NCBI GenBank assembly: GCA_052143815.1 | Contig: JBKQSA010000103.1 | Coordinates: forward strand, 53,763-117,762 | DNA: 64,000 nucleotides | Direction of reading: 5' to 3' | Origin: Steroidobacteraceae bacterium | Lineage (GTDB): Bacteria > Pseudomonadota > Gammaproteobacteria > Steroidobacterales > Steroidobacteraceae | In this document: positions 5,075-20,116 of the stretch, one piece after another | Position numbering within the stretch: the stretch's first letter is position 1 | Layout of the letters: every line of letters begins with the position of its first letter | Program-made: the position numbers and the translations under genes | Notes under the pieces: model-generated | What the model was told of the DNA's origin: nothing | The model's input: only the letters and a program-made list of their open reading frames with translations | The model's database searches: none

Positions 5075-6262
5075 ATGTTGAAAGAACGTGACGTGATGGT
5101 ACTCGGCGCTGGGCGCTCGGCGATCGGGACCTTTGGTGGCGGCCTGTCAGAGATCGAACCGGCTGAGCTGGCTGGGTCCGTGATGAAGGCGGTCCTTCAG
5201 CGGTCAGGGGTCGACCCTGCCTTGATCAACTACGTAGTGGTTGGGAACACGATTCCGACAGAAGGCCGGTTCCCGTACGTGGCCCGCGTTGCCTCAATCC
5301 AGGCCGGGTTGCCGATGCAATCCGTCGCAATGTCGGTGAACCGCCTATGTTCCTCCGGGCTTCAGGCAATAGTAACAACCGCTCAAAATATTCTACTCGG
5401 GGATTGCGACTATGGCATCGGCGGTGGCGTCGAGGTGATGAGTCGGGGAGCCTATTTGTCGGCGGCGATTCGCACAGGCGCTCGCATGGGTGATACCAAA
5501 CTCGTCGATATGATGGTCGCGACTCTAACGGACCCGTTTGGCGTGGGTCACATGGGTATCACGGCCGAGAATTTGGTTGCCAAGTGGGGCATTTCCCGCG
5601 AGGAACAGGATGCCTTGGCGTTTGAGTCCCACCGTCGCGCTGGCGCAGCCATTGCGGAAGGCCGATTTAAGTCGCAGATTGTCCCTATCGTCAAGCACAC
5701 AAAGAATGGCGACGTGGTGTTCGATACTGACGAACACGTGAGGGCGGACACATCACTAGAGGTGCTCGGGAAGATGAAACCGGCGTTCAAGAAAGACGGC
5801 ACGGTAACCGCCGGAAACGCCTCAGGCATCAATGATGGAGCCGCATTCTTGGTTCTCGGCAATTCAGCGTCCGCTACAGCAGCAGGCTACAAATCGATCG
5901 CCCGGCTCGTGTCGTACGCCGTTGCCGGAGTTCCCAACGAGATCATGGGTGAGGGTCCGATACCAGCCTCTAAGTTGGCGCTCGAAAAGGCCGGGCTGGC
6001 GCTGGACCAGATGGACGTCGTGGAAAGCAACGAAGCGTTCGCCGCTCAGGCAATTGCCGTAGCCCGTGGCTTGGGGCTCGATATGGCGAAGACCAATCCC
6101 AATGGCGGCGCCATCGCATTGGGCCACCCCATTGGCTGTTCTGGTGCTGCCCTTGCCATCAAAGCCATCTATGAGTTGCATCGCATCGGTGGACGCTATG
6201 CACTGGTCACGATGTGCATCGGGGGCGGACAAGGTATCGCGGCCATTTTTGAAAACACCTGA
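5075..6262 (+). CDS. Acetyl-CoA C-acetyltransferase (thiolase II family)
   Basis: VNRLCSSGLQAI (nucleophilic Cys), NGGAIALGHPIGCSGA and CIGGGQGIA. The ATG at 5075 is preceded by GGAGG. The upstream part of ORF 4994.. is not thiolase-like. Confidence 0.92.
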   Translation: MLKERDVMVLGAGRSAIGTFGGGLSEIEPAELAGSVMKAVLQRSGVDPALINYVVVGNTIPTEGRFPYVARVASIQAGLPMQSVAMSVNRLCSSGLQAIVTTAQNILLGDCDYGIGGGVEVMSRGAYLSAAIRTGARMGDTKLVDMMVATLTDPFGVGHMGITAENLVAKWGISREEQDALAFESHRRAGAAIAEGRFKSQIVPIVKHTKNGDVVFDTDEHVRADTSLEVLGKMKPAFKKDGTVTAGNASGINDGAAFLVLGNSASATAAGYKSIARLVSYAVAGVPNEIMGEGPIPASKLALEKAGLALDQMDVVESNEAFAAQAIAVARGLGLDMAKTNPNGGAIALGHPIGCSGAALAIKAIYELHRIGGRYALVTMCIGGGQGIAAIFENT

Positions 6263-6614
6263 CGATCGAAAGCGGAACTCGCAATTTTCGTGCGTCAGAC
6301 GACGCGAAGACTAACTTGCCCGACGCCTCCACACCTAGCGCTGAGTTTCGCCGTTCGTTGAACCCAACGTGAACCGGCCAGCCGAAGGTGGCGCCGGGCC
6401 ACGGGCCACGACATGCATCATGATGCGGTTCCGAATATGCGCATGGAACTTCGCCGGCGCGTGGAATGATATTGCACGTGAAAGGGCATCTGCCCCGCGA
6501 GCAGGCGGACCGGCAAGCACCGTGGGCACCGAATCGCGTTCGCTCGGGCCGGCTTCGGAATTGCCGTCGTTCGGGTTATTCTTGTTCCTTAAAAGTTGGC
6601 AATTGGAGCGCTGG

Positions 6615-7712
6615 ATGTCCGAAGATAGCTCGAACCTGGTCGCGCTGCGACCGGCGAATTCACCCAATAGCTTCGATTTGCGACGCGTGGGTGCGCATCC
6701 GGATTACTGGTATCCGGTGGCTTGGTCCGACGAATTGAAGGTGGGCCGGGCGCTTGGACGCCGCTTCGCCGGCGAGCCGATCGTGATTTATCGCGGCAAG
6801 AAGGGTCAGGTGTTTGCGCTCGAGGACCGGTGTGCGCATCGGCAGGTGCCGCTGCACTTAGGCGTGGTGACCGGCGATGAGCTCAAGTGTCATTATCACG
6901 GTTGGACCTATAACTGCAGCGGCAAATGCGTGGGCGTACCGTATCTCGGTACCGATCGGCTGCCCAACGGAGTCAAGAGCTATCCCGCACGTGAAGTGGA
7001 TGGTCTGATCTTCGTGTTTCCGGGCGACGCCGCTTTGGCGGAGAGCCGCTTGCCGACGGCGCTGGGCTCGTCGCAGCGCGAGGACTACAAGACTCGACGG
7101 CTCAACCGCGAGGTGGCTTGCCACTATACGTTCATGCACGAGAATCTCTTCGATATGAACCACCAGTTCATGCACCGCAAGCATATGGGTTCGATCAAGG
7201 CGCGGTGCCTCGGAAGAAGCCACGGCGAGAACTGGGCGCAGGTGGAATACAGTTTCGCCCGCTCCGAGGGTAAACAGTCGGTGGGCGAACACGTCATCGT
7301 CGATCTGATGCGCAAGCGCGGTGAACCGAAAAAAGACTTCTCCGACCACATGCGCATTCGCACTGACTATCCGACGCAGAGCCTCAAAGTGTGGGTGGGC
7401 CGGGACATCAAGACAACGGATGAACCGGTGTTGGACGTGTGGCTCGGATATACGCCGTTGGATGCCGCGCAGCGGACCAATCGAACGTATGGGTATCTGT
7501 CGGTCAAGAAACCGCGGATGCCTGGAATCATTCACGCCGTCTGGCCGCTCGTGACCTGGTTCACCGAGAACATTTTCCGCGAGGACAAGGAAATCGTGGA
7601 ATACGAACAGCAGGCGTATGAGGCTCAGGGCACTGATTGGAACAACGAAGTGTTTCCGCCGCTGCATGATCTGCGCACGGTGCTGGCGCGTTGCGGGCGA
7701 CCGATGACGTAG
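6615..7712 (+). CDS. Rieske [2Fe-2S] non-haem-iron oxygenase, VanA/PaO-like
   Basis: Rieske motif CAHRQVPLHLGVVTGDELKCHYHGW and iron motif HENLFDMNHQFMH. The ATG at 6615 follows GGAG. The upstream extension of ORF 6369.. is low-complexity. Confidence 0.85.
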   Translation: MSEDSSNLVALRPANSPNSFDLRRVGAHPDYWYPVAWSDELKVGRALGRRFAGEPIVIYRGKKGQVFALEDRCAHRQVPLHLGVVTGDELKCHYHGWTYNCSGKCVGVPYLGTDRLPNGVKSYPAREVDGLIFVFPGDAALAESRLPTALGSSQREDYKTRRLNREVACHYTFMHENLFDMNHQFMHRKHMGSIKARCLGRSHGENWAQVEYSFARSEGKQSVGEHVIVDLMRKRGEPKKDFSDHMRIRTDYPTQSLKVWVGRDIKTTDEPVLDVWLGYTPLDAAQRTNRTYGYLSVKKPRMPGIIHAVWPLVTWFTENIFREDKEIVEYEQQAYEAQGTDWNNEVFPPLHDLRTVLARCGRPMT

Positions 7713-7797
7713 GTCTGGGCGTTGCAGGCGCGAATAAATCTGACATCGAACCGTATCGCGCAACTGTTAAAGTGGCGCCCCTGTTCGAGGAGTCAAG

Positions 7798-9129
7798 ATG
7801 CGTCCAGTGCAGCGACAATATGGCCGGTTGATTGCGCGCGCGCTGCATGTTCTCGTCTGTGTCGCCGCGAGCATGGTCGTTGCATTGGCACGGTTGGATG
7901 CGCTGGCGGATGGCGTTCCGCCGCCCGACGCGAGCGGTGCCGAGCCCAACGTCCCGGCGGGCGGTCTGTCGGGATGGCTCAATCCATCGACGGCTCCGTT
8001 CATTCCGGTGCCGCTGATCGGGTCTGACCCAAACAGTGGCACCACACTGGGAGTCCTGCCCGTTTGGATCAAAACCGACGACGATCACGAGATCCGTCGC
8101 ATCATTGCACCCGATGTGCTCCACAATCCGTATTTTGGTTACGGCATGGACGCACGCGTGTATGCCTATTCGTCGAAGGACGCGCAGTGGTCGATCGACG
8201 CGGGCATTAAAGAGCGTGTCGAGCGCGACGTCGACGCCGAGTATCAGATCGGGCGCCTGCGGGAGCAGCTCTGGTCCATGAATTACAGTCTGATCTTCGA
8301 CCGTAGCGGTACGCCGCGTTTCTACGGCGTCGGGAACGAGTCGCCCATGATCAATGAGACCAACTACACCAACACCCAGGAATTGGGCCAGGTGCAGGTC
8401 GGCCTGAATCTTACCCATCTCTGGCAGATTCTTTATACCGGACGTTTTCGATCCGACGACGTGACGCCGGGCACCTTGGAAGGCATCGCGTCCATCGAGT
8501 CCCGATTCGGCCGCATCTTGGGCGTCGGTACCAACAACCAGTTGCTCAACCGCCTCTCGATCATTTACGACACCCGGGACGACTTGGTGGTGCCAAGCCA
8601 CGGAATGGAGTGGGTTGTGTATGGCGGCGGCGCCGCTCGACGTGGAATATTGAACGAATCCATGTACAGCGAGGCCGGCTTGGACGGCCGTGATTTCTGG
8701 CCGGTTGCCGACGGCACGGTTCTCGCGGCCCACGTCGCGCTGCGCTATTTGCCCACGTCACACGAAGTACCTTTCTGGGCGCTCAGCAGTCTGGGTGGTG
8801 GTGTCAGTCAGACCGGCGGCGAACAGCCGTTGCGCGGCTACGGCGAGGGACGATTTTACGATCGGAACTCGTTTTCCACGTCTGTTGAGGTGCGTCGCAC
8901 AGTGCTGTCGTTCGATGCCGTCTCGACGCGCGTCGATGTGGAACTCGCGCCGTTCGTGGATATCGGTCGAGTATTCGCAAGAACCAACACCGATCCGTTC
9001 GAACAGCTGCATCACGTGTTCGGTATAGGATTTCGCGGCATCGCGAAGCCCTTCGTGGTCGGCAAGGTGGACATCGGCTACGGTAGTGAAGGCGTTGCCG
9101 TGTTCACCGGTCTCAATTATCCGTTCTAG
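7798..9129 (+). CDS. Omp85/BamA-TamA-family outer-membrane beta-barrel protein (short N-terminus)
   Basis: Signal-like N-terminus. Motifs seen are YDTRDDLVVPSHG, LGGGVSQTGGEQPLRGYGEGRF and FVDIGRVF, and the C-terminus GLNYPF ends in an aromatic residue. Confidence 0.65.
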   Translation: MRPVQRQYGRLIARALHVLVCVAASMVVALARLDALADGVPPPDASGAEPNVPAGGLSGWLNPSTAPFIPVPLIGSDPNSGTTLGVLPVWIKTDDDHEIRRIIAPDVLHNPYFGYGMDARVYAYSSKDAQWSIDAGIKERVERDVDAEYQIGRLREQLWSMNYSLIFDRSGTPRFYGVGNESPMINETNYTNTQELGQVQVGLNLTHLWQILYTGRFRSDDVTPGTLEGIASIESRFGRILGVGTNNQLLNRLSIIYDTRDDLVVPSHGMEWVVYGGGAARRGILNESMYSEAGLDGRDFWPVADGTVLAAHVALRYLPTSHEVPFWALSSLGGGVSQTGGEQPLRGYGEGRFYDRNSFSTSVEVRRTVLSFDAVSTRVDVELAPFVDIGRVFARTNTDPFEQLHHVFGIGFRGIAKPFVVGKVDIGYGSEGVAVFTGLNYPF

Positions 9130-10395: not shown

Positions 10396-11073
10396 TTGCC
10401 GGAGAGTTCCCCGAAGTTGCGCGCTGAAGGTTCGTTGACGGTCAAGACCGGCCGACGCCCGCCTCTTGCGCGGACCGCCCGCCTCACCGTGTTGTTTGCC
10501 GATTTACGAGGATACACCGGCCTCGCGGAACGGCTTGCCGCTGCACGCATCGTGCCGCTGCTGGATGAGTTTTTTGGCGTACTCGCAAAGGCCACGCTGT
10601 CGCATGGCGGCACGGTTTTCCATATGGCCGGGGACGGTATGATGGCCGGCTTCGGCGGACTCGACTCGGAACAGGACGGTGCGCGTGAGGCGCTTGCTGC
10701 CGGCCACGCGATGTTGCAGCATTTCGGCACGGTGGCAGCACGCTGGCGCAATGAACTGTCGCTCGAAACCGGCATCGGCGTGGGGCTTCATTTGGGCGAA
10801 GTCGCGATGGGGCTGCTGGGGCCGCCGGGCCGGAAATCGACCACGTTGGTCGGCGATACCGTCAACGTCGCTGCTCGACTTTGCAGCCGCGCCCGAGCGG
10901 GAGAGGTGTTGTTGTCGTGTACGGTAGCGGCTGCCTTGGAGATCGACGACGGTGAGCGCGAACTCTACGTCGGACCGATCCCGATACTGCATCTGCCCCA
11001 GTTCGAACTGCGCGGCCGAACGGCGCCGTTGGACATCTGGTGCGTGCCGGCGATGGAGCGCGTCGCGTTGTAG
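10396..11073 (+). CDS. Small class III nucleotidyl cyclase domain protein
   Basis: LTVLFADLRGYTGL, HMAGDGMMAGFG and GDTVNVAARL. The start is uncertain: ORF 10336.. overlaps the OYE gene, and the TTG at 10396 is a provisional choice. Confidence 0.75.
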   Translation: MPESSPKLRAEGSLTVKTGRRPPLARTARLTVLFADLRGYTGLAERLAAARIVPLLDEFFGVLAKATLSHGGTVFHMAGDGMMAGFGGLDSEQDGAREALAAGHAMLQHFGTVAARWRNELSLETGIGVGLHLGEVAMGLLGPPGRKSTTLVGDTVNVAARLCSRARAGEVLLSCTVAAALEIDDGERELYVGPIPILHLPQFELRGRTAPLDIWCVPAMERVAL

Positions 11074-11103: not shown

Positions 11104-11189
11104 GCCCTCGTGGCGGAATCGGTAGACGCAACGGACTTAAAATCCGTCGGTTAACAGCCATCCCGGTTCGAGTCCGGGCGAGGGCACCA
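11104..11189 (+). tRNA. tRNA-Leu (anticodon UAA)
   Basis: Acceptor stem GCCCTCG/CGAGGGC, anticodon arm ACGGA-CTTAAAA-TCCGT (TAA), long variable arm, T arm CCCGG-TTCGAGT-CCGGG, and an encoded CCA. Confidence 0.95.
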
Positions 11190-11295
11190 ATAAGTTATCT
11201 GAAAGCCAGCTCGTTGAGCAGTGTGCCATTCACGACCCGCGGCGTTTCTTGATTCATTGGGAAAATTTATTGGTCGAGCCGGGGTTGCCTGCCAA

Positions 11296-11324
11296 TTGAA
11301 ATGACTGTTATAACTTGTTATAAT
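11296..11324 (+). promoter_or_regulatory. Sigma70-like promoter TTGAAA-N17-TATAAT overlapping the direct repeats TGTTATAAC/TTGTTATAAT
   Basis: Read directly. The -10 element ends 6 nt before the ATG at 11331, which implies a leaderless or near-leaderless mRNA. Confidence 0.5.
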
Positions 11325-11330
11325 CTCGCA

Positions 11331-11771
11331 ATGAAATTGACGGTTCGACGTGTCGGCAACTCCCTTGGAGTCATATTACCGAAAGATGCGCTTGAGGCGT
11401 GGGCTATCGGCGAGGGCGATCATTTGGAACTCACTGAGCGCGGCATTCGACCCCCGGCTCGCGGCGGCCTTTCGCATCAAGCGTTGGATGAGCTCAAACG
11501 GTCCATCGCTCTTGCAGTTGTACGTGGCTTTACGCCCAGGGAAATCCGGGCCCAAATGCTGGCGAACTTGCATCGCTGGAAGAACCAGGGGACTTGGGGT
11601 CCTGCCTATGATGAATGGCAAAAGATTGCGCAATCTGAAGACGACGGTGTACTTTTTTCGGTGATGCTCGGACGCGACGAGAATGCCGTGAGGCTGCGGC
11701 AATCGATGCCGTTTGTTGGGCTTCTCCCGCAGGAGGAAGTGAGGAAGCTGCATGAAGAAGCGGGAGGTTGA
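11331..11771 (+). CDS. AbrB/MazE/SpoVT-type DNA-binding protein with an extended C-terminal domain (antitoxin-like)
   Basis: MKLTVRRVGNSLGVILPKDALEAWAIGEGDHLELTERG is a swapped-hairpin AbrB/MazE signature. About 100 further residues have an unrecognised fold. Confidence 0.75.
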   Translation: MKLTVRRVGNSLGVILPKDALEAWAIGEGDHLELTERGIRPPARGGLSHQALDELKRSIALAVVRGFTPREIRAQMLANLHRWKNQGTWGPAYDEWQKIAQSEDDGVLFSVMLGRDENAVRLRQSMPFVGLLPQEEVRKLHEEAGG

Positions 11772-12423
11772 TCATGTACTGCGCGCCGCGGGGCGGATTA
11801 CTGGTGAGAAGCAATTTATAATCATCGGCAGCCAGTCTCTCCACGGAAAGTATCCCGACCTTCCCGATAGTCTTGTCAAATCATTCGAGGTGGATCTGAT
11901 GGCCTCGAAGAATGCCGATCGAACAGAGTGGCTGAACGTAATCGGCGTGTACTCACCGTTTCATGAAAGTTTTGGCTACTACGCCGACCCAGTCGATCAC
12001 AAGACCGCGACATTCCCCAAGGGCTGGAAAGGGCGGCTGGTGAATCTGCCCGAAGGGGATACCGAAGGTGTTCAAGGGCTATGTTTGGATCCTCACGATC
12101 TCGCGATTGCCAAATATGTCGCACGCCGGGAGAAGGATATTGTTTTCACGCGTGAACTTGCCAAGCGAGGAATCGTGTCGCGCGATCGATTGCTCGCATT
12201 GCTCGACCAGACGTCTGTTTCTAAAGAAGCGCGCGCGCGAATTCATACGCACATCGCCAAGGATTTTGGCGTTCTAAAAGAACTGGAGGGAACTCAGCAG
12301 CGCCAGGAGGCTTGGCGCGAGTCAATACGTGCTTCAGGCTCGCCCAGCCTCGAGGAGATTCGACAACATGACGATCCGCTAGAGGATCACGGGACAGGTA
12401 TCGACGAGGATACGACGGAGTAG
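11752..12423 (+). CDS. Conserved-looking hypothetical protein, possibly a nucleotidyltransferase fold (toxin/effector candidate)
   Basis: Overlaps the upstream gene by 20 nt. Motifs are FIIIGSQSLHG...SFEVDLMA (a GS...ExD pattern) and LDPHDLAIAKYVARREKDIVF. The function is an inference only. Confidence 0.5.
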   Translation: MKKREVDHVLRAAGRITGEKQFIIIGSQSLHGKYPDLPDSLVKSFEVDLMASKNADRTEWLNVIGVYSPFHESFGYYADPVDHKTATFPKGWKGRLVNLPEGDTEGVQGLCLDPHDLAIAKYVARREKDIVFTRELAKRGIVSRDRLLALLDQTSVSKEARARIHTHIAKDFGVLKELEGTQQRQEAWRESIRASGSPSLEEIRQHDDPLEDHGTGIDEDTTE

Positions 12424-12431
12424 CCGCTGAT

Positions 12432-12457
12432 TTTGCCTACCGACCGGTTTAGGCAAA
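12432..12457 (+). terminator. Hairpin TTTGCCTA-N10-TAGGCAAA after the islet operon
   Basis: 8-bp perfect stem read directly, 9 nt after the stop at 12423. There is no T-tract. Confidence 0.35.
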
Positions 12458-12458
12458 G

Positions 12459-12497
12459 TGAACTGCCATCCGGGTTCGAGCCCGGGCGAGGGCACCA
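12459..12497 (+). repeat. Degenerate direct copy of the tRNA-Leu 3' end (att-like scar)
   Basis: TGAACTGCCATCCGGGTTCGAGCCCGGGCGAGGGCACCA compared with the tRNA at 11151..11189, TTAACAGCCATCCCGGTTCGAGTCCGGGCGAGGGCACCA. There are 4 mismatches by hand count. Confidence 0.85.
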
Positions 12498-12576
12498 GCA
12501 TTACTCGACCGCACTTGTGCCGGGGTCATTTGCCAGAAAGGCGCCTTGGGTTGCGGATCATTTGTCCGGCGGATCT

Positions 12577-13518
12577 TCAGGCGTCGACCAGCGTTTGCCT
12601 CAATTCGGCGACGCGCCCTGGCAATGCGATCGCGACCTCATCGACTTGCTCTTCGTTGAGTCCCAGCCATGACATGGCGGCTGCATTGCGGGCAATCGGC
12701 GCCGGTTCCAGCGTGAAGGTGCTGCCGCTGGCAAGCCCTAGAGTGGCGCCCAGATTGATGAGCGCGGCCAGTGCGCGATGAGGCTCAATGGCAGCCATCG
12801 GATCGTGATGATGGCGCGTCGCCACGATGAGAGATTCCGGCAGCTTCCATGCTTCAAAAATCACTGCGATGCATTCCTCATGTCCGACGGAGGCATACTC
12901 CGATTCCAGGGCACGCATGTCGCGCGTGTCATCCGACTTGCGCAGATCGATCATCGTAGTGATGCCAGGTGAGTCGAGATGCAGCTGTACGACGATTCCG
13001 AGGTTGTGCAGCAGTCCCGCAATGAAGGCGTCGCAGGCCAACGCCGGGTTCTGGATCCGGGCCAGGGTTTCGGCCGCTGACGCGGTAGCGAGGCTATGCT
13101 GCAACAGCGCCTCCATATCGACCAGAGACTGTTCGCTGCCCGGCGACATGGTTCGGTCCAGACACGCCGCTGCGGCAATTCCGCGTACAGCGTCGAGGCC
13201 CAAGACCACCAGGGCGCGATCCAGGGTGGTGATCGAGCGGGACTGTCCGTAGTAGGGCGAGTTCGCGACGCGCAGCACCCTCGCGCACAGGGCGGGCTCT
13301 TTCCGCAGTAGCGTCCCCACCACGCGTGCGTCGACTTCAGAGTTGCAGAGCGCAGCCATGATCTGCGGCGCGCCGTGCGCACCGGCGCCGAGCACGCCGA
13401 TAGATGCCGCGTGCTTTAGGATCTGCGCGCGGTCAACGAGAGAATGGGCGCGATGCTGGGAGTCCATTGATGGAATCTTATCGGGCAGATGGTCCCAAAG
13501 TGGTGTGAGTCGGCTCAC
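12577..13518 (-). CDS. HDOD-domain signalling protein
   Basis: LLRKEPALCARVLRVANSPYYGQSRSITTLDRALVVLGLDAVRGIA and HNLGIVV are typical HDOD blocks. Confidence 0.85.
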   Translation of the reverse strand: MSRLTPLWDHLPDKIPSMDSQHRAHSLVDRAQILKHAASIGVLGAGAHGAPQIMAALCNSEVDARVVGTLLRKEPALCARVLRVANSPYYGQSRSITTLDRALVVLGLDAVRGIAAAACLDRTMSPGSEQSLVDMEALLQHSLATASAAETLARIQNPALACDAFIAGLLHNLGIVVQLHLDSPGITTMIDLRKSDDTRDMRALESEYASVGHEECIAVIFEAWKLPESLIVATRHHHDPMAAIEPHRALAALINLGATLGLASGSTFTLEPAPIARNAAAMSWLGLNEEQVDEVAIALPGRVAELRQTLVDA

Positions 13519-13624
13519 AGATCAGGCCACTGCTTGATATCGCGTTACAAGAACGCCTCGTTCTGCCGATAAGGCGGCTGCGTAGAACGAATGCTTCCGG
13601 ACTTGAAAAGGGCACCCATCGGTC

Positions 13625-16600
13625 ATGGACCAGGAATCGACTTCAGGCAGGGGGTGCGCAGAGCCCGGCGCTGCCGCGACGGTTGCAAGCAAGCTTCGTC
13701 GGACACCGTGGGAGCCTTTGATTGCGACCGCAGACACCAGCGGTTCAACAGTCGCCGGGTGGGCCGCCGCCCTGGTATTGACGGCCGGTGTGGCCGAATC
13801 GGCTGTGCTCGCCGCAGTTCTGAACCCGGCCGTATGGGGACGGGTAATGGCCATCGGTGCCCTGTTGGCACTGATGGCCAGTGCCCTTGCCGGAGTCCTG
13901 GCGTCGTACTTGCACGGTCGGACGGCATTGCGCTCACACCATCATCGGCACGGTCAAAAACTCGGCGAGCCGCAGCGCGATCTGCGCGCCATCACGGACG
14001 CCCTGCCGTCAATGATCGGATATTGGGACAAGAATCTCATCAGTCGCTTCGCGAATCGCGCCTACGAAGTATGGTTCGGTGTTGATCCGCAGGCGATGTA
14101 CGGCATGCACATGTGCGATCTTCTTGGGGAGGACCAGTTCGAGCGTACCCGCGCATACGCTGAAGCAGCCCTTCGCGGTGAACCGGTCACGTTCGAGCGC
14201 GACCTTCCAGTCAATGAAGATCAGACGATCACCCACCTGCTGGCCCATTACATACCCGATATGAGTGGCGGCGAAGTCAGGGGGTTCTATGTGATGGTGT
14301 ACGACATCACTGCGCTCAAAGAGGCTCAACGACGTCTCGCAGAGAGCGAAACGTTTCTCGAACAAGCGGGGGCTGTATCGGGAGTAGGTGGATTTCGCGT
14401 GGACCTGCAGTCGGGCCGGCAGACGTGGACGCGCCAGACCTTCAAGATTTACGAGATGGAGACCGATGTTGCTCCCTCTGCAGAGGAACTGGATAAACTC
14501 ATGGCGCCTGAGATCGGCGCGAGGCTCTGGAAGGCCATTCGGGTTGCCGCGGAAACCGGCGTAGGCTACAACATTGAAATCCCGGTAGCCACGGCTCGCG
14601 GTCGATCGATCTGGATCCGGACCATTGGCGTCGTAGAGTTCGAGAATGGCAAGCCTGTGCGGGTCGTGGGAGCCGTCCAAGACATTACCGACCGCAAAGT
14701 CGCGCAAGAGGCGCTGCGGATCACGAGCGAGCGTCTCGCGCTGGCGACCGACGCTGCCGGTATCGGTGTCTGGGAATGGGACATCAACCGCAACGTGCTC
14801 CGCTGGGACGATCAGATGCACCGCCTGTACGGCCATACTCGATCCGCCGAAGATGAGCCCTACAGCCTGTGGACCGACAGCCTCCATGCCGACGATCGCG
14901 AGCGCGCCGAGCAGGAGATCATCACCGCGCTGAACGCCGGCCCGAATTTCGACACTGAATTCAGAATAGTGCTCTCGAACGGTGAGACTCGTCATCTGAA
15001 AGCCGCGGCCCAGGTGCAGCGCGACCCGGGCGGGACTCCGTTGCGCATGGTGGGCGTGAGCTTCGACATCACTAAACGCAAAGTGGTCGAGCAAGCGTTG
15101 ATCGAGAGTGAATTGAAGTTTCGTTCGCTGTTCGAACTGTCGCCGGTCGGCATTACCCTGAACGACATGCGAAGCGGGCAGTTCCTTCATCTGAACGATG
15201 CATTGGCGGCGCCGACCGGCTACACCCGCGAAGAGTTACTGAGCATGACCCATTGGGACGTCACTCCCGCCCATTATCGCGATCAGGAAAATGCCCAGCT
15301 GCTGTTGCTGGAGCAAACGGGTCGGTACGGACCGTACGAAAAGGAATTTCTGCGTAAGGACGGGAGTACCTATGCGGTGCTGCTCTCCGGCATCCGTATG
15401 AAGGACGCGTCCGGACGTCCGTTGATCTGCTCCATCGTTCAGGATATTTCCGTGCGTAAGGCCATGGAGTCGCAATTGGCTGACGCCGCGCGGCGCGACA
15501 AATTGACGGGGTTGGCAAATCGCGCACTGTTCATCGAACGGTTGGAAAGGGCCGTTGCGCGTGTACGCGGCGGCGAGCAGCCGCTGTTCGCGGTGCTGTT
15601 TCTCGACTTCGACCGCTTCAAGCTGATTAACGATACCCTCGGTCACGACGCCGGCGATGAACTGCTGCGGCAGATTGCCCGGCGTCTGCGACGCGAATTG
15701 CGCGCTTCCGACACCCTGACGGTCGATGAAAGCGGCAATGTGGTGAGCCGCTTCGGAGGCGATGAGTTCCTTATCCTGATCAACGACCTTAGGACGCCGG
15801 ATGACGCAACTCGGATCGCCGAGCGGCTGATTAATGCACTAGCGCCCGCCTATGATCTGCAGGGCAGTGAGGTGCATTCGAGTGCGAGCATCGGGATCAT
15901 CACCAGCGACCAGTGCCAAACCAATGCCGAGGACGTCGTGCGCAATGCCGATGTGGCGATGTATGAGGCCAAGCGCGCAGGCCGCGCTTGCTCGGTCGTG
16001 TTCAACGAGGTCATGCAGACGCGCCTGACGCGCCATGTGACGATCGAGAACAACCTGCGCCGGGCGCTTGGGACATCCGAGCTGTATCTGGTCTATCAGC
16101 CCATCGTCGAACTGTCGACCGGCAAGATGATCTCGGTCGAAGCGCTGGTGCGTTGGAACCATCCTACGCTTGGCGAGATTACCCCCTCGGAATTCATCCC
16201 GATCGCGGAGGAGTCGAGTCTGATCGTCGCCCTGGGTCAATGGGTGCAGAAAGAAGCCTGCCAGACGATGGCGATGTGGCGCAACCAGGATCCACTGCGC
16301 GCACCCCGCACGATCAGCGTCAATGTCTCGCGCGCCGAGTTGGCGATGGGCCGCCGATTGCTCGAACAAGTGCGCGCCACGCTGGAGCGCGTCGGGCTGC
16401 CCGCGCAGTGCCTGCAGCTCGAGGTTACCGAGCGTGAAGTCATGCGTCACCCTGAAGAAGCTCGTGCGCTGCTGCTCGAGCTGCAGGCTCTGGGCGTACA
16501 GCTTGCCATGGACGATTTTGGTACGGGCACTTCCTCGCTGGGCTGTCTACGGAACTATCCATTCAATACCATAAAGATCGATCGCTCCTTTGTGCAGGAC

Positions 16601-16831
16601 TTGACCGGGAGCCCAGATGTGCTGGCGGTCATTCATGCCACCGTCAACCTGGTCGAGAACCTTGGAATGGCGAGCCTCGCCGAGGGTGTCGAACAACCCG
16701 CCCAGGTCGCCATACTTCTGTCGCTCGGTTGCCGTTACGCGCAGGGCTACTTGTTCAGTCGCCCGGTGCCGGCCGCCTTGCTTCTCGATGCAGCAAGTCC
16801 CCGCGTCCCCGCCGCGCCCGTGGGGGCTTAA
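13625..16831 (+). CDS. Membrane-anchored 4xPAS-GGDEF-EAL c-di-GMP turnover protein
   Basis: Hydrophobic N-terminus, four PAS/PAC-like units, RFGGDEFLIL, SVEALVRWNHP and DDFGTGTSSL...IKIDRSFV. The start is uncertain. Confidence 0.92.
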   Translation: MDQESTSGRGCAEPGAAATVASKLRRTPWEPLIATADTSGSTVAGWAAALVLTAGVAESAVLAAVLNPAVWGRVMAIGALLALMASALAGVLASYLHGRTALRSHHHRHGQKLGEPQRDLRAITDALPSMIGYWDKNLISRFANRAYEVWFGVDPQAMYGMHMCDLLGEDQFERTRAYAEAALRGEPVTFERDLPVNEDQTITHLLAHYIPDMSGGEVRGFYVMVYDITALKEAQRRLAESETFLEQAGAVSGVGGFRVDLQSGRQTWTRQTFKIYEMETDVAPSAEELDKLMAPEIGARLWKAIRVAAETGVGYNIEIPVATARGRSIWIRTIGVVEFENGKPVRVVGAVQDITDRKVAQEALRITSERLALATDAAGIGVWEWDINRNVLRWDDQMHRLYGHTRSAEDEPYSLWTDSLHADDRERAEQEIITALNAGPNFDTEFRIVLSNGETRHLKAAAQVQRDPGGTPLRMVGVSFDITKRKVVEQALIESELKFRSLFELSPVGITLNDMRSGQFLHLNDALAAPTGYTREELLSMTHWDVTPAHYRDQENAQLLLLEQTGRYGPYEKEFLRKDGSTYAVLLSGIRMKDASGRPLICSIVQDISVRKAMESQLADAARRDKLTGLANRALFIERLERAVARVRGGEQPLFAVLFLDFDRFKLINDTLGHDAGDELLRQIARRLRRELRASDTLTVDESGNVVSRFGGDEFLILINDLRTPDDATRIAERLINALAPAYDLQGSEVHSSASIGIITSDQCQTNAEDVVRNADVAMYEAKRAGRACSVVFNEVMQTRLTRHVTIENNLRRALGTSELYLVYQPIVELSTGKMISVEALVRWNHPTLGEITPSEFIPIAEESSLIVALGQWVQKEACQTMAMWRNQDPLRAPRTISVNVSRAELAMGRRLLEQVRATLERVGLPAQCLQLEVTEREVMRHPEEARALLLELQALGVQLAMDDFGTGTSSLGCLRNYPFNTIKIDRSFVQDLTGSPDVLAVIHATVNLVENLGMASLAEGVEQPAQVAILLSLGCRYAQGYLFSRPVPAALLLDAASPRVPAAPVGA

Positions 16832-16902
16832 GTTTCCCATGAACCGGTCGACACGCTATCAGCCGTTTTCAATCGCACGCACATTCACGGAAGCGCCTCG
16901 CT

Positions 16903-18105
16903 ATGCAAGATGACGTGATGACACCGATCGACTCAGCCGCCTCGCATGACTCGCTCATGCGATTCTTACACGCAGCGCCGCTGGGCCTGTTGCAAGCTGG
17001 GCTCGACGGTACCATCGAGACCATCAACGCGACGGCGGCGGCTCTGCTCGCACCGCTGTCGTCCAATGGTCGCCTGGACAATCTGTTTGCCCTGTTGATC
17101 GAGGCCATGCCGCAACTGCAGGCGATGGTCGCCGCGTTCGATAAGGATACCGGTACCGTCTGCGAAGCCATTCGCGTACCGATGGTCGGGCGCGCGAATT
17201 CCGCCGTGTCTCAGATACCGTGCGTCGGACTTTTCAAATTGGATGCAACTCGGCTGTTGGCTACGGTGAGCGATGTCGTTGTCGAACCTGTTAATCACGA
17301 ACGCGTCTCGCGGCGCAGCGTCATGGCGGCCGAGCTGCGGCAGGCGCTTGCGGAGAACCAGCTATTCGTCCAATACCAGCCCATCGTCGGGCTGCGCCGC
17401 GAGGACGCCAGCCTTGGGGTGATGGATCGGAGCGCGGGCGTCGAGGCACTGGTGCGTTGGAATCATCGGATTCGCGGTGCGGTGTCGCCGTTGGAATTCA
17501 TCAGTGTTGCGGAGGAATACGGCCTGATAGGCGCGCTCGGCGACTTCGTGCTGAATACCGCCTCTCGTCAATTCATGAAATGGCAACTCGAGCTGGGAGT
17601 GCGTGCCCCGCGGCTATTGGCGTTGAACCTCTCGCGCGTGCAAATCGCGCAACCGGGATTCGTCGCCTCGGTTGGGAATATCGTGAACGCCAGCGGCATG
17701 GCTGCCGAGCAGCTGCAACTCGAAGTGAATGAAAGCGTGGTGGCGCAGGATGAGGCGGTCCAGGCCCGCTTGCGGGAACTCAAGGCACTCGGGCTGGTGC
17801 TCGCGCTGGATCACTTCGGGACGGGCTATTCTTCGCTGACCAGACTGCACCGGCTGCCGGTGGACGTCATTAAGATCGATCGTTCCTTCGTCAACGAGGC
17901 AATCGCCAGTACGTACCACCGGGTGTTGATCGAATCCATGGTGCGCGTCGCCAAAAGCTTGCGAATGAGCACGGTTGCGGAAGGAATCGAAACCGAAGCG
18001 CAGCTCGCCATGGTGCGGCAATCGGGCTGCGAGAAAGGCCAGGGATTCTTCTTCGGCGAGGCCATTTCGGCCGCCAACTTGGAGCAGTGGCTGAGTTTGG
18101 ACTAA
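16903..18105 (+). CDS. PAS-like sensor-EAL phosphodiesterase
   Basis: GVEALVRWNH, DHFGTGYSSLTRL, IKIDRSFV and EGIETEAQ. The N-terminus FLHAAPLGLLQAGLDGTIETINATAAALL is PAS-like. Confidence 0.85.
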   Translation: MQDDVMTPIDSAASHDSLMRFLHAAPLGLLQAGLDGTIETINATAAALLAPLSSNGRLDNLFALLIEAMPQLQAMVAAFDKDTGTVCEAIRVPMVGRANSAVSQIPCVGLFKLDATRLLATVSDVVVEPVNHERVSRRSVMAAELRQALAENQLFVQYQPIVGLRREDASLGVMDRSAGVEALVRWNHRIRGAVSPLEFISVAEEYGLIGALGDFVLNTASRQFMKWQLELGVRAPRLLALNLSRVQIAQPGFVASVGNIVNASGMAAEQLQLEVNESVVAQDEAVQARLRELKALGLVLALDHFGTGYSSLTRLHRLPVDVIKIDRSFVNEAIASTYHRVLIESMVRVAKSLRMSTVAEGIETEAQLAMVRQSGCEKGQGFFFGEAISAANLEQWLSLD

Positions 18106-18188
18106 ATCGCAGTCGATTAGGGAACTTGCGTCGCTCCGTAGACTCCGTAGACTCCATCTGGTAGCAAGGAATACAACGGAGCATCGTC

Positions 18189-18671
18189 ATGGCGTATGGT
18201 TTCAGGATCGGTTTACCTCTAGCGTTGCTGCTTGTCTTCGGAGCCGCGGCGGCAGACCCCCAGCATGAGCACGGCGGTGGTGGCGAGCGATCCGGCGGTC
18301 ACGAGGGCGGTCACCAGCCGGAGCCGCATCCCGGTCCCAGCGGCTATCAGCGAGTCGAGGAGCCGCACGGATGGAACAATCGGCCCGCCGCGGTGGATCG
18401 AGGCGCTTATCAGCATAATTTCCAAGCCTCCCGAAGCTACAGAATCGGCCCCTACCATCGTCCTCCGGGCTGGTCCGCGCGCCGCTGGGGCTATGGCGAA
18501 ATTCTCCCGCGCGCCTTTTGGGCTCCGCAATATTTGCTGGCCGACTACTGGCTCTTCGCCCTTGAGGTGCCGCCCGTCGGATACGAATGGGTGCGCTACG
18601 GCGCGGATGCGTTGCTGATCAACACGAGTAACGGTGAGATACTGCAGGTGGAGTACGGCGTCTTCGCTTGA
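18189..18671 (+). CDS. RcnB-family periplasmic protein with a His/Gly-rich segment
   Basis: Signal peptide MAYGFRIGLPLALLLVFGAAAA, then HEHGGGGERSGGHEGGHQPEPH. The C-terminal block GEILPRAFWAPQYLLADYWLFALEVPPVGYEWVRYGADALLINTSNGEIL is RcnB-like. Confidence 0.7.
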   Translation: MAYGFRIGLPLALLLVFGAAAADPQHEHGGGGERSGGHEGGHQPEPHPGPSGYQRVEEPHGWNNRPAAVDRGAYQHNFQASRSYRIGPYHRPPGWSARRWGYGEILPRAFWAPQYLLADYWLFALEVPPVGYEWVRYGADALLINTSNGEILQVEYGVFA

Positions 18672-18808
18672 CCGCCAAAAGCGGGAACGCAGTATGATTC
18701 GCTGACTCGGCGTCTTGCTTCGCGCTGCGCGGGGGCAGGGCGATTGCGCACCCCGTCTGGCGTCGCCCGGTCGCGCGGGCAGTTCTTGCCGTCGAAAGAA
18801 AAATAGCG

Positions 18809-20116
18809 TTGTCACTGCTCAGTTCCTTACCCCAATTCAAGCTCGCTCCCACGGATTTGCTGCGAGATGCGACTTACCGTCGCCTCTGGACGTCCATATT
18901 GATCTCATCATTCGGCGGCCAGGTGACCCTGCTTGCGTTGCCCCTATCGGCCGCGGTGCTGCTGCATGCCTCTCCGACGCAGATGGGATTGCTGACGGCG
19001 ATGGAAATCGCGCCCTTCGTCCTATTCTCGCTGCCGACCGGAGTGTGGCTCGATCGCGTGCGCAAGCTGCCCGTCTACGTGGTCGGGGAGTTGTCGATCG
19101 CGGTGACCGTGGCCACGGTGCCCGTGGCGTGGTGGCTCGGCTGGCTGTCGATTCGGTGGCTATATTTCGTCGGCTTCGTGATCGGTGCGGTGAACACGAC
19201 GGCGGGCAGCGCTGCGCAGATCGTGCTGACACAAATCGTGCCCCGCGAACGCTTGGTCGAGGCGCATGCCAAGAACGCGCTGGCGTCGTCAACCGCCGAG
19301 GTGACGGGGCCCGGTGCGGCCGGTGCGCTGATCAAAATGACGGGTGCTCCGGTTGCTTTGCTGGCCGATGCGGTGTTGCTGCTCATTTCTGCGTCGATCC
19401 TTCGCGGGGTGCCGGTCAAGGAAACACCGAGTACGCGCAACCCCGCGTTCTGGCCTGCCATGCGCGAAGGGCTGAACTTCGTGCGCGGCCATCGACTCCT
19501 GATTACGATGGCCGCTTGCGTCGGTACCTGGCAGATGTGTAACCAGGCAGCGATGGTGATCCAGATCCTGTTCGCCACCCGGCAACTGGGACTGACGGAA
19601 CGCGGTGTGGGATTGAGTTATGTCGCCTTGGGAGCGGGAACGGTAGTGGCCAGCGCAATCGGATATCGCGTCATTCGCTGGATGGGAAACGGTCCGACCC
19701 TGGTATTGGGCTTCGCGGTGAGCGGTGTCGGATGGCTGGTGCTTGCGGTGGCGCCGCTGAATGCGTTCGGCGTGGCCGCCTACGTCTACATGCTGTTCTC
19801 TTTCGGCATAGGCGCCGTATTCATTTTCATCAATTTCCTGTCGCTGCGGCAGTCTGTGACGCCGGCACCGATGCTGGGCCGAATGACGAGCACCATGCGG
19901 TGGCTGATCCTGCTGCCGGCCGGACCCGGCGCACTGCTGGGCGGCTGGCTGGGAGAACACCTGGGATTGCGGGTAGCCTTGGGATTCGCGGGCAGCACCG
20001 CGGTGCTGCTTTCTCTGGTGGCGCGGCGGCTCGAGGTGATTCGGAACGTGAGAACCCTCCCGATGCTGAAGGCCGAAGCGGTGACGCCCTATTCGGCGAA
20101 TCCCGATGCCGGCTGA
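18809..20116 (+). CDS. MFS transporter
   Basis: About 12 hydrophobic segments and YRRLWTSILISSFGGQVTLLALPL. TTG start, uncertain. Confidence 0.8.
   Translation: MSLLSSLPQFKLAPTDLLRDATYRRLWTSILISSFGGQVTLLALPLSAAVLLHASPTQMGLLTAMEIAPFVLFSLPTGVWLDRVRKLPVYVVGELSIAVTVATVPVAWWLGWLSIRWLYFVGFVIGAVNTTAGSAAQIVLTQIVPRERLVEAHAKNALASSTAEVTGPGAAGALIKMTGAPVALLADAVLLLISASILRGVPVKETPSTRNPAFWPAMREGLNFVRGHRLLITMAACVGTWQMCNQAAMVIQILFATRQLGLTERGVGLSYVALGAGTVVASAIGYRVIRWMGNGPTLVLGFAVSGVGWLVLAVAPLNAFGVAAYVYMLFSFGIGAVFIFINFLSLRQSVTPAPMLGRMTSTMRWLILLPAGPGALLGGWLGEHLGLRVALGFAGSTAVLLSLVARRLEVIRNVRTLPMLKAEAVTPYSANPDAG

Follow-up and report, generated by a model that had tools for sequence, protein, structure and literature searches.

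A probable island remnant with a putative toxin–antitoxin operon at a tRNA-Leu gene of Steroidobacteraceae

How does a stretch of 1.3 kb that carries two small genes and no integrase come to lie between a tRNA gene and a degenerate copy of the 3′ end of that same gene? Direct repeats of tRNA fragments are the signature by which Islander-type searches recognize islands inserted by tyrosine integrases, and a first-pass annotation of the islet studied here had read its borders as the attL and attR sites of such an event. The islet adjoins tRNA-Leu(UAA) in a 64,000-nt stretch of a soil Steroidobacteraceae bacterium (GCA_052143815.1, contig JBKQSA010000103.1); we refer to the whole stretch as the window, and all coordinates are window positions unless a locus is named. 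We find that the islet is probably what decay has left of an element that a tyrosine integrase inserted at the 3′ end of tRNA-Leu(UAA); it has no integrase and kept a putative toxin–antitoxin (TA) operon.

The genome assembly (5.54 Mb, 98.9% complete) was searched whole for copies of the repeat and for integrases. Comparisons drew on a genus with more than 150 species representatives, and a tree of the cyclase gene that flanks the tRNA-Leu locus served as the phylogenetic frame. The related contigs are metagenome-assembled genomes (MAGs) from soil, peat and bog, labelled Steroidobacteraceae or Gammaproteobacteria. The best 80 loci homologous to the two-gene cassette were surveyed for their tRNA-Leu context, and 77 were aligned for proteins and promoters. 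Genomes are denoted by G (G000 is the host), loci by L and metagenome runs by X.

The islet and its borders

The tRNA-Leu(UAA) gene (11104–11189, plus strand) is the sole tRNA gene of the window according to ARAGORN, and Rfam agrees (60.5 bits). A repeat search of the window matched the last 40 nt of this presumed integration target (11150–11189, taken as attL) to a direct repeat at 12458–12497 on the plus strand, with 36 of 40 positions identical (90%); we regard the second copy as a degenerate, attR-type scar. Two of the four mismatches (11152 and 11156) fall in the variable arm, a third (11163) breaks a T-stem pair and the last (11173) is the final base of the T loop. Compared with the repeats of intact islands at this gene, which span 56–62 nt, the scar keeps 40 of about 60 nt and retains nothing from the tRNA upstream of tRNA position 47. 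A pattern search found exactly two copies in the whole assembly and zero in the reversed control, so the match is neither a chance similarity nor a dispersed repeat. A second tRNA or other RNA gene at 12458–12497 was ruled out by both ARAGORN and Rfam.

Between the repeats, 1,268 nt (11190–12457) begin at the first base after the CCA end of the tRNA. Their GC content, 0.539, is the lowest of any stretch of this length in the window (mean 0.614, s.d. 0.021), 3.6 s.d. below the mean, and GC at third codon positions (GC3) is 0.58 in the two genes of the islet versus 0.69–0.74 in five neighbouring genes. Neither of these two genes, which are the only ones present, encodes a recombinase, and the window holds no homologue of the tyrosine recombinases of tRNA-Leu islands. 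Nor does the host genome encode a close homologue of those integrases: the best match reaches 38% identity over the catalytic half. An integrase acting in trans from elsewhere in the genome was considered and rejected, as the search returned only distant tyrosine recombinases (at most 38% identity).

The first-pass annotation had described a 39-nt tRNA-end repeat with four mismatches, two of them in the T arm, a distal copy that is no functional part of a tRNA, a drop in GC content and the lack of an integrase. All of these hold, the repeat being slightly longer than reported, and the compositional break that it proposed to look for is real. Its reservation that the match might belong to a widespread dispersed repeat falls away with the genomic count.

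The start of the islet has counterparts elsewhere. A left-end block (11190–11240, plus strand), which begins AAGNTATCNGAAAGCCAGCTCNTNGAGCAGTGNGC, was recognized by comparison of flanks and by blastn-short matches to L031 and L115; five congeners with the cassette, and also G242, which lacks it, have this block directly 3′ of the tRNA. In G242 (L110, 1528–1580), the block directly follows the tRNA and no cassette is present; instead come a terminator hairpin and then a convergent gene. This locus is probably another deletion derivative.

Empty, occupied and tandem states in the genus

If the islet was inserted, relatives with an empty site should exist, and the first-pass annotation had suggested a search for them. 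The relative with the most similar flanks (G005, 83% nucleotide identity) has such a site: next to the cyclase gene and tRNA-Leu, the orthologous HDOD gene has its stop codon 10 nt past the CCA end. A second comparison comes from G001 and G289, close sisters on the cyclase tree; G001 is empty and G289 has an insert of 1,983 bp, starting 4 nt after the tRNA, that contains the cassette and a partial tRNA-end copy (17/18) that starts at the stop codon of the toxin gene.

At least 11 congeners carry the cassette beside tRNA-Leu. The order tRNA, cassette, tRNA-end copy recurs in G244 (60 nt, 98% identity), G299 (49 nt, 96%) and G289, and the distance from the toxin stop codon to the copy is 34 nt in the host genome, 254 nt in G244 and 587 nt in G299. 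Many congeners lack a right-hand repeat. When we scanned 78 loci for tRNA-end remnants after the cassette, using shuffled controls, only G289 and L105 scored above the 99th percentile (21); G289, with a score of 31, exceeds the shuffled maximum of 29 and L105 equals it. L105 is on a contig binned to a Solirubrobacterales MAG and has a tRNA-Leu-like remnant, ACAGCCATCCC..CCCGGGCGAGG (10545–10570), 30 nt after the cassette; no tRNA gene lies within 10 kb of this cassette.

Two further genomes show elements in series. In G022, the tRNA is followed by a 14.8-kb island (L016, 1806–16560), a perfect tRNA-end copy of 56–62 nt and then the cassette. The island begins with a 374-aa tyrosine integrase, and ten of its plus-strand open reading frames have no Pfam match; on both strands, a 3.6-kb stretch (5221–9004) has several open frames. 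In G013, 338 bp separate the tRNA from a degenerate tRNA-end copy, beyond which lies the cassette. Entry of a new element into a tRNA gene that already carries an older remnant would be expected to produce tandem states like these two. The first-pass annotation had proposed to look for the same module in larger, integrase-bearing tRNA-Leu islands: the cassette does adjoin such an island in G022, but no island with both inside its att borders was found.

In G022, G007, G012 and G278, this tRNA is immediately followed by related tyrosine integrases, and G007 has a perfect repeat 7.3 kb away. The sequence right after the CCA end is different in nearly every congener, and the core genes conserved among relatives resume only about 7.6 kb downstream, near 18,820, leaving 11190–18820 as a variable region. 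Together, these observations mark the locus as an integration hot spot. The HDOD gene and a PAS-GGDEF-EAL gene sit inside this flexible region, and the HDOD gene has a paralogue (70% nucleotide identity) on another contig (G000:C104:20778-21392).

A putative toxin–antitoxin operon

The two genes of the islet lie in the same orientation and overlap by 20 nt (11331–11771 and 11752–12423, plus strand). They are preceded by the only sigma70-like site of the islet, TTGAAA-17-TATAAT (11296–11324, plus strand), which matches 11 of 12 positions in the promoter scan and has a TG extension; the overlapping module with its own strong promoter that had been noted earlier is thus confirmed. Two operator-like boxes lie in the promoter in the arrangement GTTATAAC-NN-GTTATAAT: the palindrome GTTATAAC at 11307–11314 and GTTATAAT at 11317–11324, the latter doubling as the −10 element. 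This pair is kept in 69 of 77 homologous loci. The ATG follows the −10 box by 6 nt, which implies a leaderless mRNA; the distance is 6–7 nt in 59 of the 69 loci with the box pair, and a Shine–Dalgarno-like sequence occurs in 1 of 77. The natural reading of this geometry is that the operon would be leaderless and self-repressed.

The upstream gene encodes a 146-aa putative antitoxin and repressor. Its N terminus is an AbrB/MazE swapped-hairpin domain (PF04014 above its cut-off, E = 2e-7), and the AlphaFold model (pLDDT 89.6) has the N domains of MazE and VapB as its top Foldseek matches, with r.m.s.d. values of 2.4–3 Å. The C-terminal domain, of about 100 aa, is helical and highly conserved, with the motif RLRQSxP, in which R123, Q124 and P127 are invariant across the 77 aligned homologues; sequence and fold searches of the PDB found no solved relative of it.

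The downstream gene encodes a 223-aa putative toxin, a DUF6036 nucleotidyltransferase (PF19502, E = 2e-10; pLDDT 88.5). According to the alignment, a conserved core extends to about residue 172 and is followed by a lineage-specific acidic tail; G26, S27 and D48 are invariant and E46 nearly so. The best folds in the PDB, at a TM score of about 0.3, are the AbiEii-type structure 4ok0 (E = 0.07) and the toxin MenT4 (6y56, E = 0.36), both non-significant. A sequence search of the PDB with this protein gave no match, and DUF6036 went unmentioned in the literature searched. Membership of a known defence system or a named TA family was considered for the pair and set aside: PADLOC returned nothing, NCBIfam only a sub-threshold ‘doc_partner’ and the PDB no sequence match.

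Full-length antitoxins (144–147 aa) stand in all 76 loci that have a readable antitoxin start beside an intact DUF6036 gene. The broken copies seen are of toxins only, with antitoxins intact: truncated toxins in G241, G023 and G249, and a frameshifting deletion of 328 nt in the DUF6036 gene (window 11927–12256) in contigs from X3 and X7. The converse, a broken antitoxin beside an intact toxin, was found at no locus among those read. This asymmetry fits DUF6036 as the toxin, and the likeliest function of the operon is that of a type II-style TA module with the AbrB/MazE-fold protein as antitoxin; on sequence grounds, toxicity, neutralization and autoregulation are predicted for the pair. The contigs with the 328-nt deletion represent either a related strain or a paralogous copy. 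The orphan antitoxin of G241 (L120, 1209–1725) is followed by only 32 toxin codons, and the deletion reaches a point that in the sister genome G013 is located 4.8 kb further downstream.

Toxin length varies from 172 to 301 aa across loci through the C-terminal tails. In G289 (L118, 2515–2532), the 173-aa toxin ends within the partial tRNA-end copy, TCGGTTAACAGCCGTCCC, which contains its stop codon. Where a cassette ends at a tRNA-end copy, the att sequence sets the C terminus of the toxin, which may account for the variable tails elsewhere.

Cassette exchange and metagenomic alleles

On the cyclase tree, the character ‘cassette at tRNA-Leu’ needs 9 changes; well-supported branches require at least 5 of these. 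Between G241 and the window, the antitoxins share 97% of amino acids (93% nucleotide identity), although the cyclases of the two genomes share only 70% of amino acids and 63% of nucleotides; G013, the sister of G241, carries a 64% (amino acid) allele. A near-identical antitoxin in spite of a divergent cyclase indicates that the cassette is exchanged horizontally within the genus. Some cassette-bearing contigs are binned to other phyla.

Soil and peat metagenomes of four independent studies contain the islet allele in identical or nearly identical form. Contigs from X5, X6 and X9 belong to a second strain, about 95% identical over the 3′ end of the HDOD gene, in which a scar replaces the islet: after the tRNA come the 52 nt GCAAGATGCCGACTTTGAACGTATTGAGTAGCGGCTGATCTCGACAACTTAA, then GATCT and the HDOD stop codon (window joint 11189/12572). 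The scar starts like the left-end block (CAAGATGCCG versus CAAGATACCG in G299, at the same offset), of which about 11 nt are kept, and 17 of 18 positions at its 3′ side agree with the region of the toxin stop codon in G244. This allele is a deletion derivative of an islet and arose by illegitimate deletion, not by att × att recombination. The joint that precise excision would leave (11189 to 12498) was not seen in the contigs of eight metagenomes, a weak negative, because contigs drop rare variants.

Between the operon and the native flank

Two short segments lie to the right of the operon. An 8-bp hairpin, TTTGCCTA and TAGGCAAA around a 10-nt loop (12432–12457, plus strand), can be read between the toxin stop codon and the repeat. 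Beyond the repeat, a spacer of 79 nt (12498–12576, no strand assigned) reaches from the scar to the HDOD stop codon. No counterpart for it exists in the 10 nt of G005 or in any fetched locus; comparison with about 120 such loci and with the remainder of the window gave no similarity.

Proposed history and its rivals

We hypothesize that a tyrosine integrase inserted an element into the 3′ end of tRNA-Leu(UAA) by site-specific recombination, a reaction that would have rebuilt the tRNA from the copy carried by the element and displaced a tRNA-end copy to the far side. Cassette and repeat would have arrived in one element. The element would then have decayed to a self-contained two-gene operon, its addiction module, while the displaced copy, free to decay, eroded to 4 mismatches in 40. 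In the operon that persists, the AbrB/MazE-fold protein would neutralize the DUF6036 toxin through the conserved helical C-terminal domain and repress the leaderless promoter through the GTTATAAC/GTTATAAT boxes; the addiction property is the likely reason why this operon is the last piece left, and its stabilizing role is presumed from that. As the genome has no cognate integrase, the islet would be immobile unless a helper island arrives.

Several observations weigh against this history. The right border is untidy: a simple integration predicts a repeat that abuts the native flank, yet 79 nt separate it from the HDOD stop codon, compared with the 10 nt between tRNA and stop codon in G005. Seventy of the 80 best homologous loci have no tRNA-Leu gene or fragment, and homology across the 80 begins at the −35 box (about 11296) and ends at about 12206–12273, near codon 172 of the toxin, from which it follows that the cassette also moves by routes without att sites. 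The scar allele of X5, X6 and X9 has no tRNA-end copy, which for this allele implies a separate addition of the repeat or two deletions. No larger element was found with cassette and integrase inside its att borders. For the operon itself, the fold matches to MenT-type toxins are below significance (E = 0.07–0.4), and PADLOC and NCBIfam give nothing above cut-off for the gene pair.

A rival history has two unrelated events, in which the TA cassette arrived independently of att sites, by illegitimate or homology-assisted insertion as at its many sites away from a tRNA, the tRNA-end copy is the scar of another, vanished element and the islet is their juxtaposition. The restriction of cassette homology to about 11296–12270 and the many loci without tRNA-Leu speak for such a history, as do the changing distances between stop codon and copy (34, 254 and 587 nt), the repeats of G244 and G299, which are far better preserved than expected if they were as old as the cassette junction, the scar that keeps both islet ends and no repeat, and the unexplained 79-nt segment. 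It sits badly, however, with a bracket of tRNA, cassette and tRNA-end copy that occurs independently in four congeners, with a partial copy in G289 that begins at the toxin stop codon itself, with a left-end block placed directly after the CCA end in five cassette-bearing genomes and with the Solirubrobacterales-binned contig, in which a tRNA-Leu-like remnant lies 30 nt past a cassette that has no tRNA near it. We therefore consider the two-event history unlikely, although the 79-nt segment, the repeat-less scar allele and the lack of an intact parent element keep it worth a minority weight. Alternatively, the islet might have been inherited vertically as an ancestral neighbour of the tRNA, with empty sites as deletions and the repeat as a product of chance or conversion. 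The tRNA–cassette spacer can indeed be aligned in G192, G244, G299 and G243, cassette identity roughly follows flank identity in G269, G274, G289 and G299, and the metagenomic scar shows that deletion occurs. Such inheritance is nevertheless very improbable, given a GC content that is the lowest in the window, a GC3 of 0.58 against about 0.72 in the neighbours, a flank tree that demands at least 5 gains or losses, an antitoxin 97% identical to that of G241 despite a cyclase of 70% amino acid identity and a 64% allele in the sister G013, and a 36/40 match found nowhere else in 5.5 Mb, and so not due to chance.

The first-pass annotation had left the choice between a minimal stabilized remnant and a very small satellite-type element. 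A still-active satellite that uses the integrase of a helper island in trans at tRNA-Leu would account for the exchange of the cassette between lineages and its recurrence beside one tRNA in at least 11 congeners, for the helper-type integrase islands that target this tRNA, one of them in tandem with the cassette in G022, and for the identical islet allele in metagenomes from four independent studies. Its distal repeat, however, is mismatched at 4 of 40 positions and has nothing upstream of tRNA position 47 where intact repeats span 56–62 nt, the genome holds no cognate integrase, the right-hand repeat is wholly lost in many congeners, and in the contigs of eight metagenomes no attL–attR joint was seen and the single loss allele read came about through illegitimate deletion. 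We judge current activity of this kind improbable. Of the two options of the earlier reading, the stabilized remnant is supported and the small satellite is disfavoured by the degenerate repeat, the missing integrase and the illegitimate deletion allele. The attL/attR interpretation itself gains support from the empty site, the compositional break and the G022 tandem, and a decayed, integrase-less remnant of a tRNA-Leu element remains the probable identity of the islet.

Relation to known systems

Integrase-less islets at tRNA 3′ ends and island remnants stabilized by TA modules are already well known. Like tRNA-integrated islands in general, the islet lies at a tRNA 3′ end with a fragment of that end at its distal border, is compositionally atypical, is absent from relatives and occupies a hot spot of variable content; unlike them, it has no integrase, a gap separates its distal border from the native flank and it measures only 1.3 kb, where such islands usually span 5–100 kb.

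The islet would fit the definition of a cis-mobilizable element (CIME), transferable only when a newly arriving tRNA-Leu island provides the integrase, compare the G022 tandem. The cases described in streptococci integrate at fda; here, the host is a gammaproteobacterium and the target a tRNA gene. CIMEs and tandem accretion at att sites are treated for ICESt1 and ICESt3 of Streptococcus thermophilus in the part of PMC5704250 that summarizes that work (Pavlovic 2004, Bellanger 2011). Similar features of our locus are the absence of an integrase and the predicted tandem of G022, in which an integrase island and an integrase-less islet are separated by an internal att copy. Two tRNA-end copies are present, the distal one reduced to 40 of the about 60 nt of intact island repeats. 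Differences are an attR with only 36 of 40 matches, the lack of any parent integrative and conjugative or integrative and mobilizable element with the cassette among those found, and a cis-mobilization that is here a prediction from the G022 arrangement.

Two TA modules offer a parallel for the operon. The mosAT module of SXT stabilizes an integrated element. The same is said of sgiAT of Salmonella genomic island 1 in the portion of PMC5704250 that cites it. The islet operon resembles both as a putatively self-regulated two-gene module on an integrated element, of which it would be the surviving part; it differs from them in that the rest of its element is gone, its stabilizing role is presumed and its protein families are others.

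As a gene pair, the operon is similar to type II TA systems with AbrB/MazE antitoxins, with two small, co-oriented and overlapping genes, a MazE/AbrB domain in the upstream product and a predicted palindromic operator-like pair that overlaps the −10 box of its own promoter. Like MenAT and AbiE, it has a small nucleotidyltransferase with a GS...ExD motif encoded downstream of, and overlapping, the gene of a DNA-binding partner, and the top two, non-significant fold matches of the DUF6036 protein are of the AbiEii and MenT4 types. In contrast to those systems, Pfam assigns the putative toxin to DUF6036 and not to DUF1814, and the partner combines an AbrB/MazE fold with a novel helical C-terminal domain instead of being a MenA or AbiEi protein.

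Significance

The cargo of the islet is a very widespread gene pair, DUF6036 with a conserved helical partner domain, that forms a putative TA module. We tentatively suggest, as a speculation that we think unlikely, that AbrB–DUF6036 cassettes with tRNA-end copies form a minimal class of passengers that persist by addiction and spread among Steroidobacteraceae in tandem with tRNA-Leu integrase islands, and that DUF6036 with its RLRQSxP partner domain represents an unrecognized MenT-like toxin family with a dedicated neutralizer. If true, this would explain the repeated arrival of the cassette at one tRNA gene in many species.

The islet leaves current concepts unchanged: it is an ordinary kind of scar, unusually well documented, and a clear-cut natural case of how a genomic island comes to its end. 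The tRNA gene stays a hot spot, elements pile up there in tandem and erode, and the addiction module survives last. One genus shows the occupied, empty, tandem and scarred states, strain-level alleles co-occur in the same soils, and the locus could become a compact model system for studying island decay and cis-mobilization.

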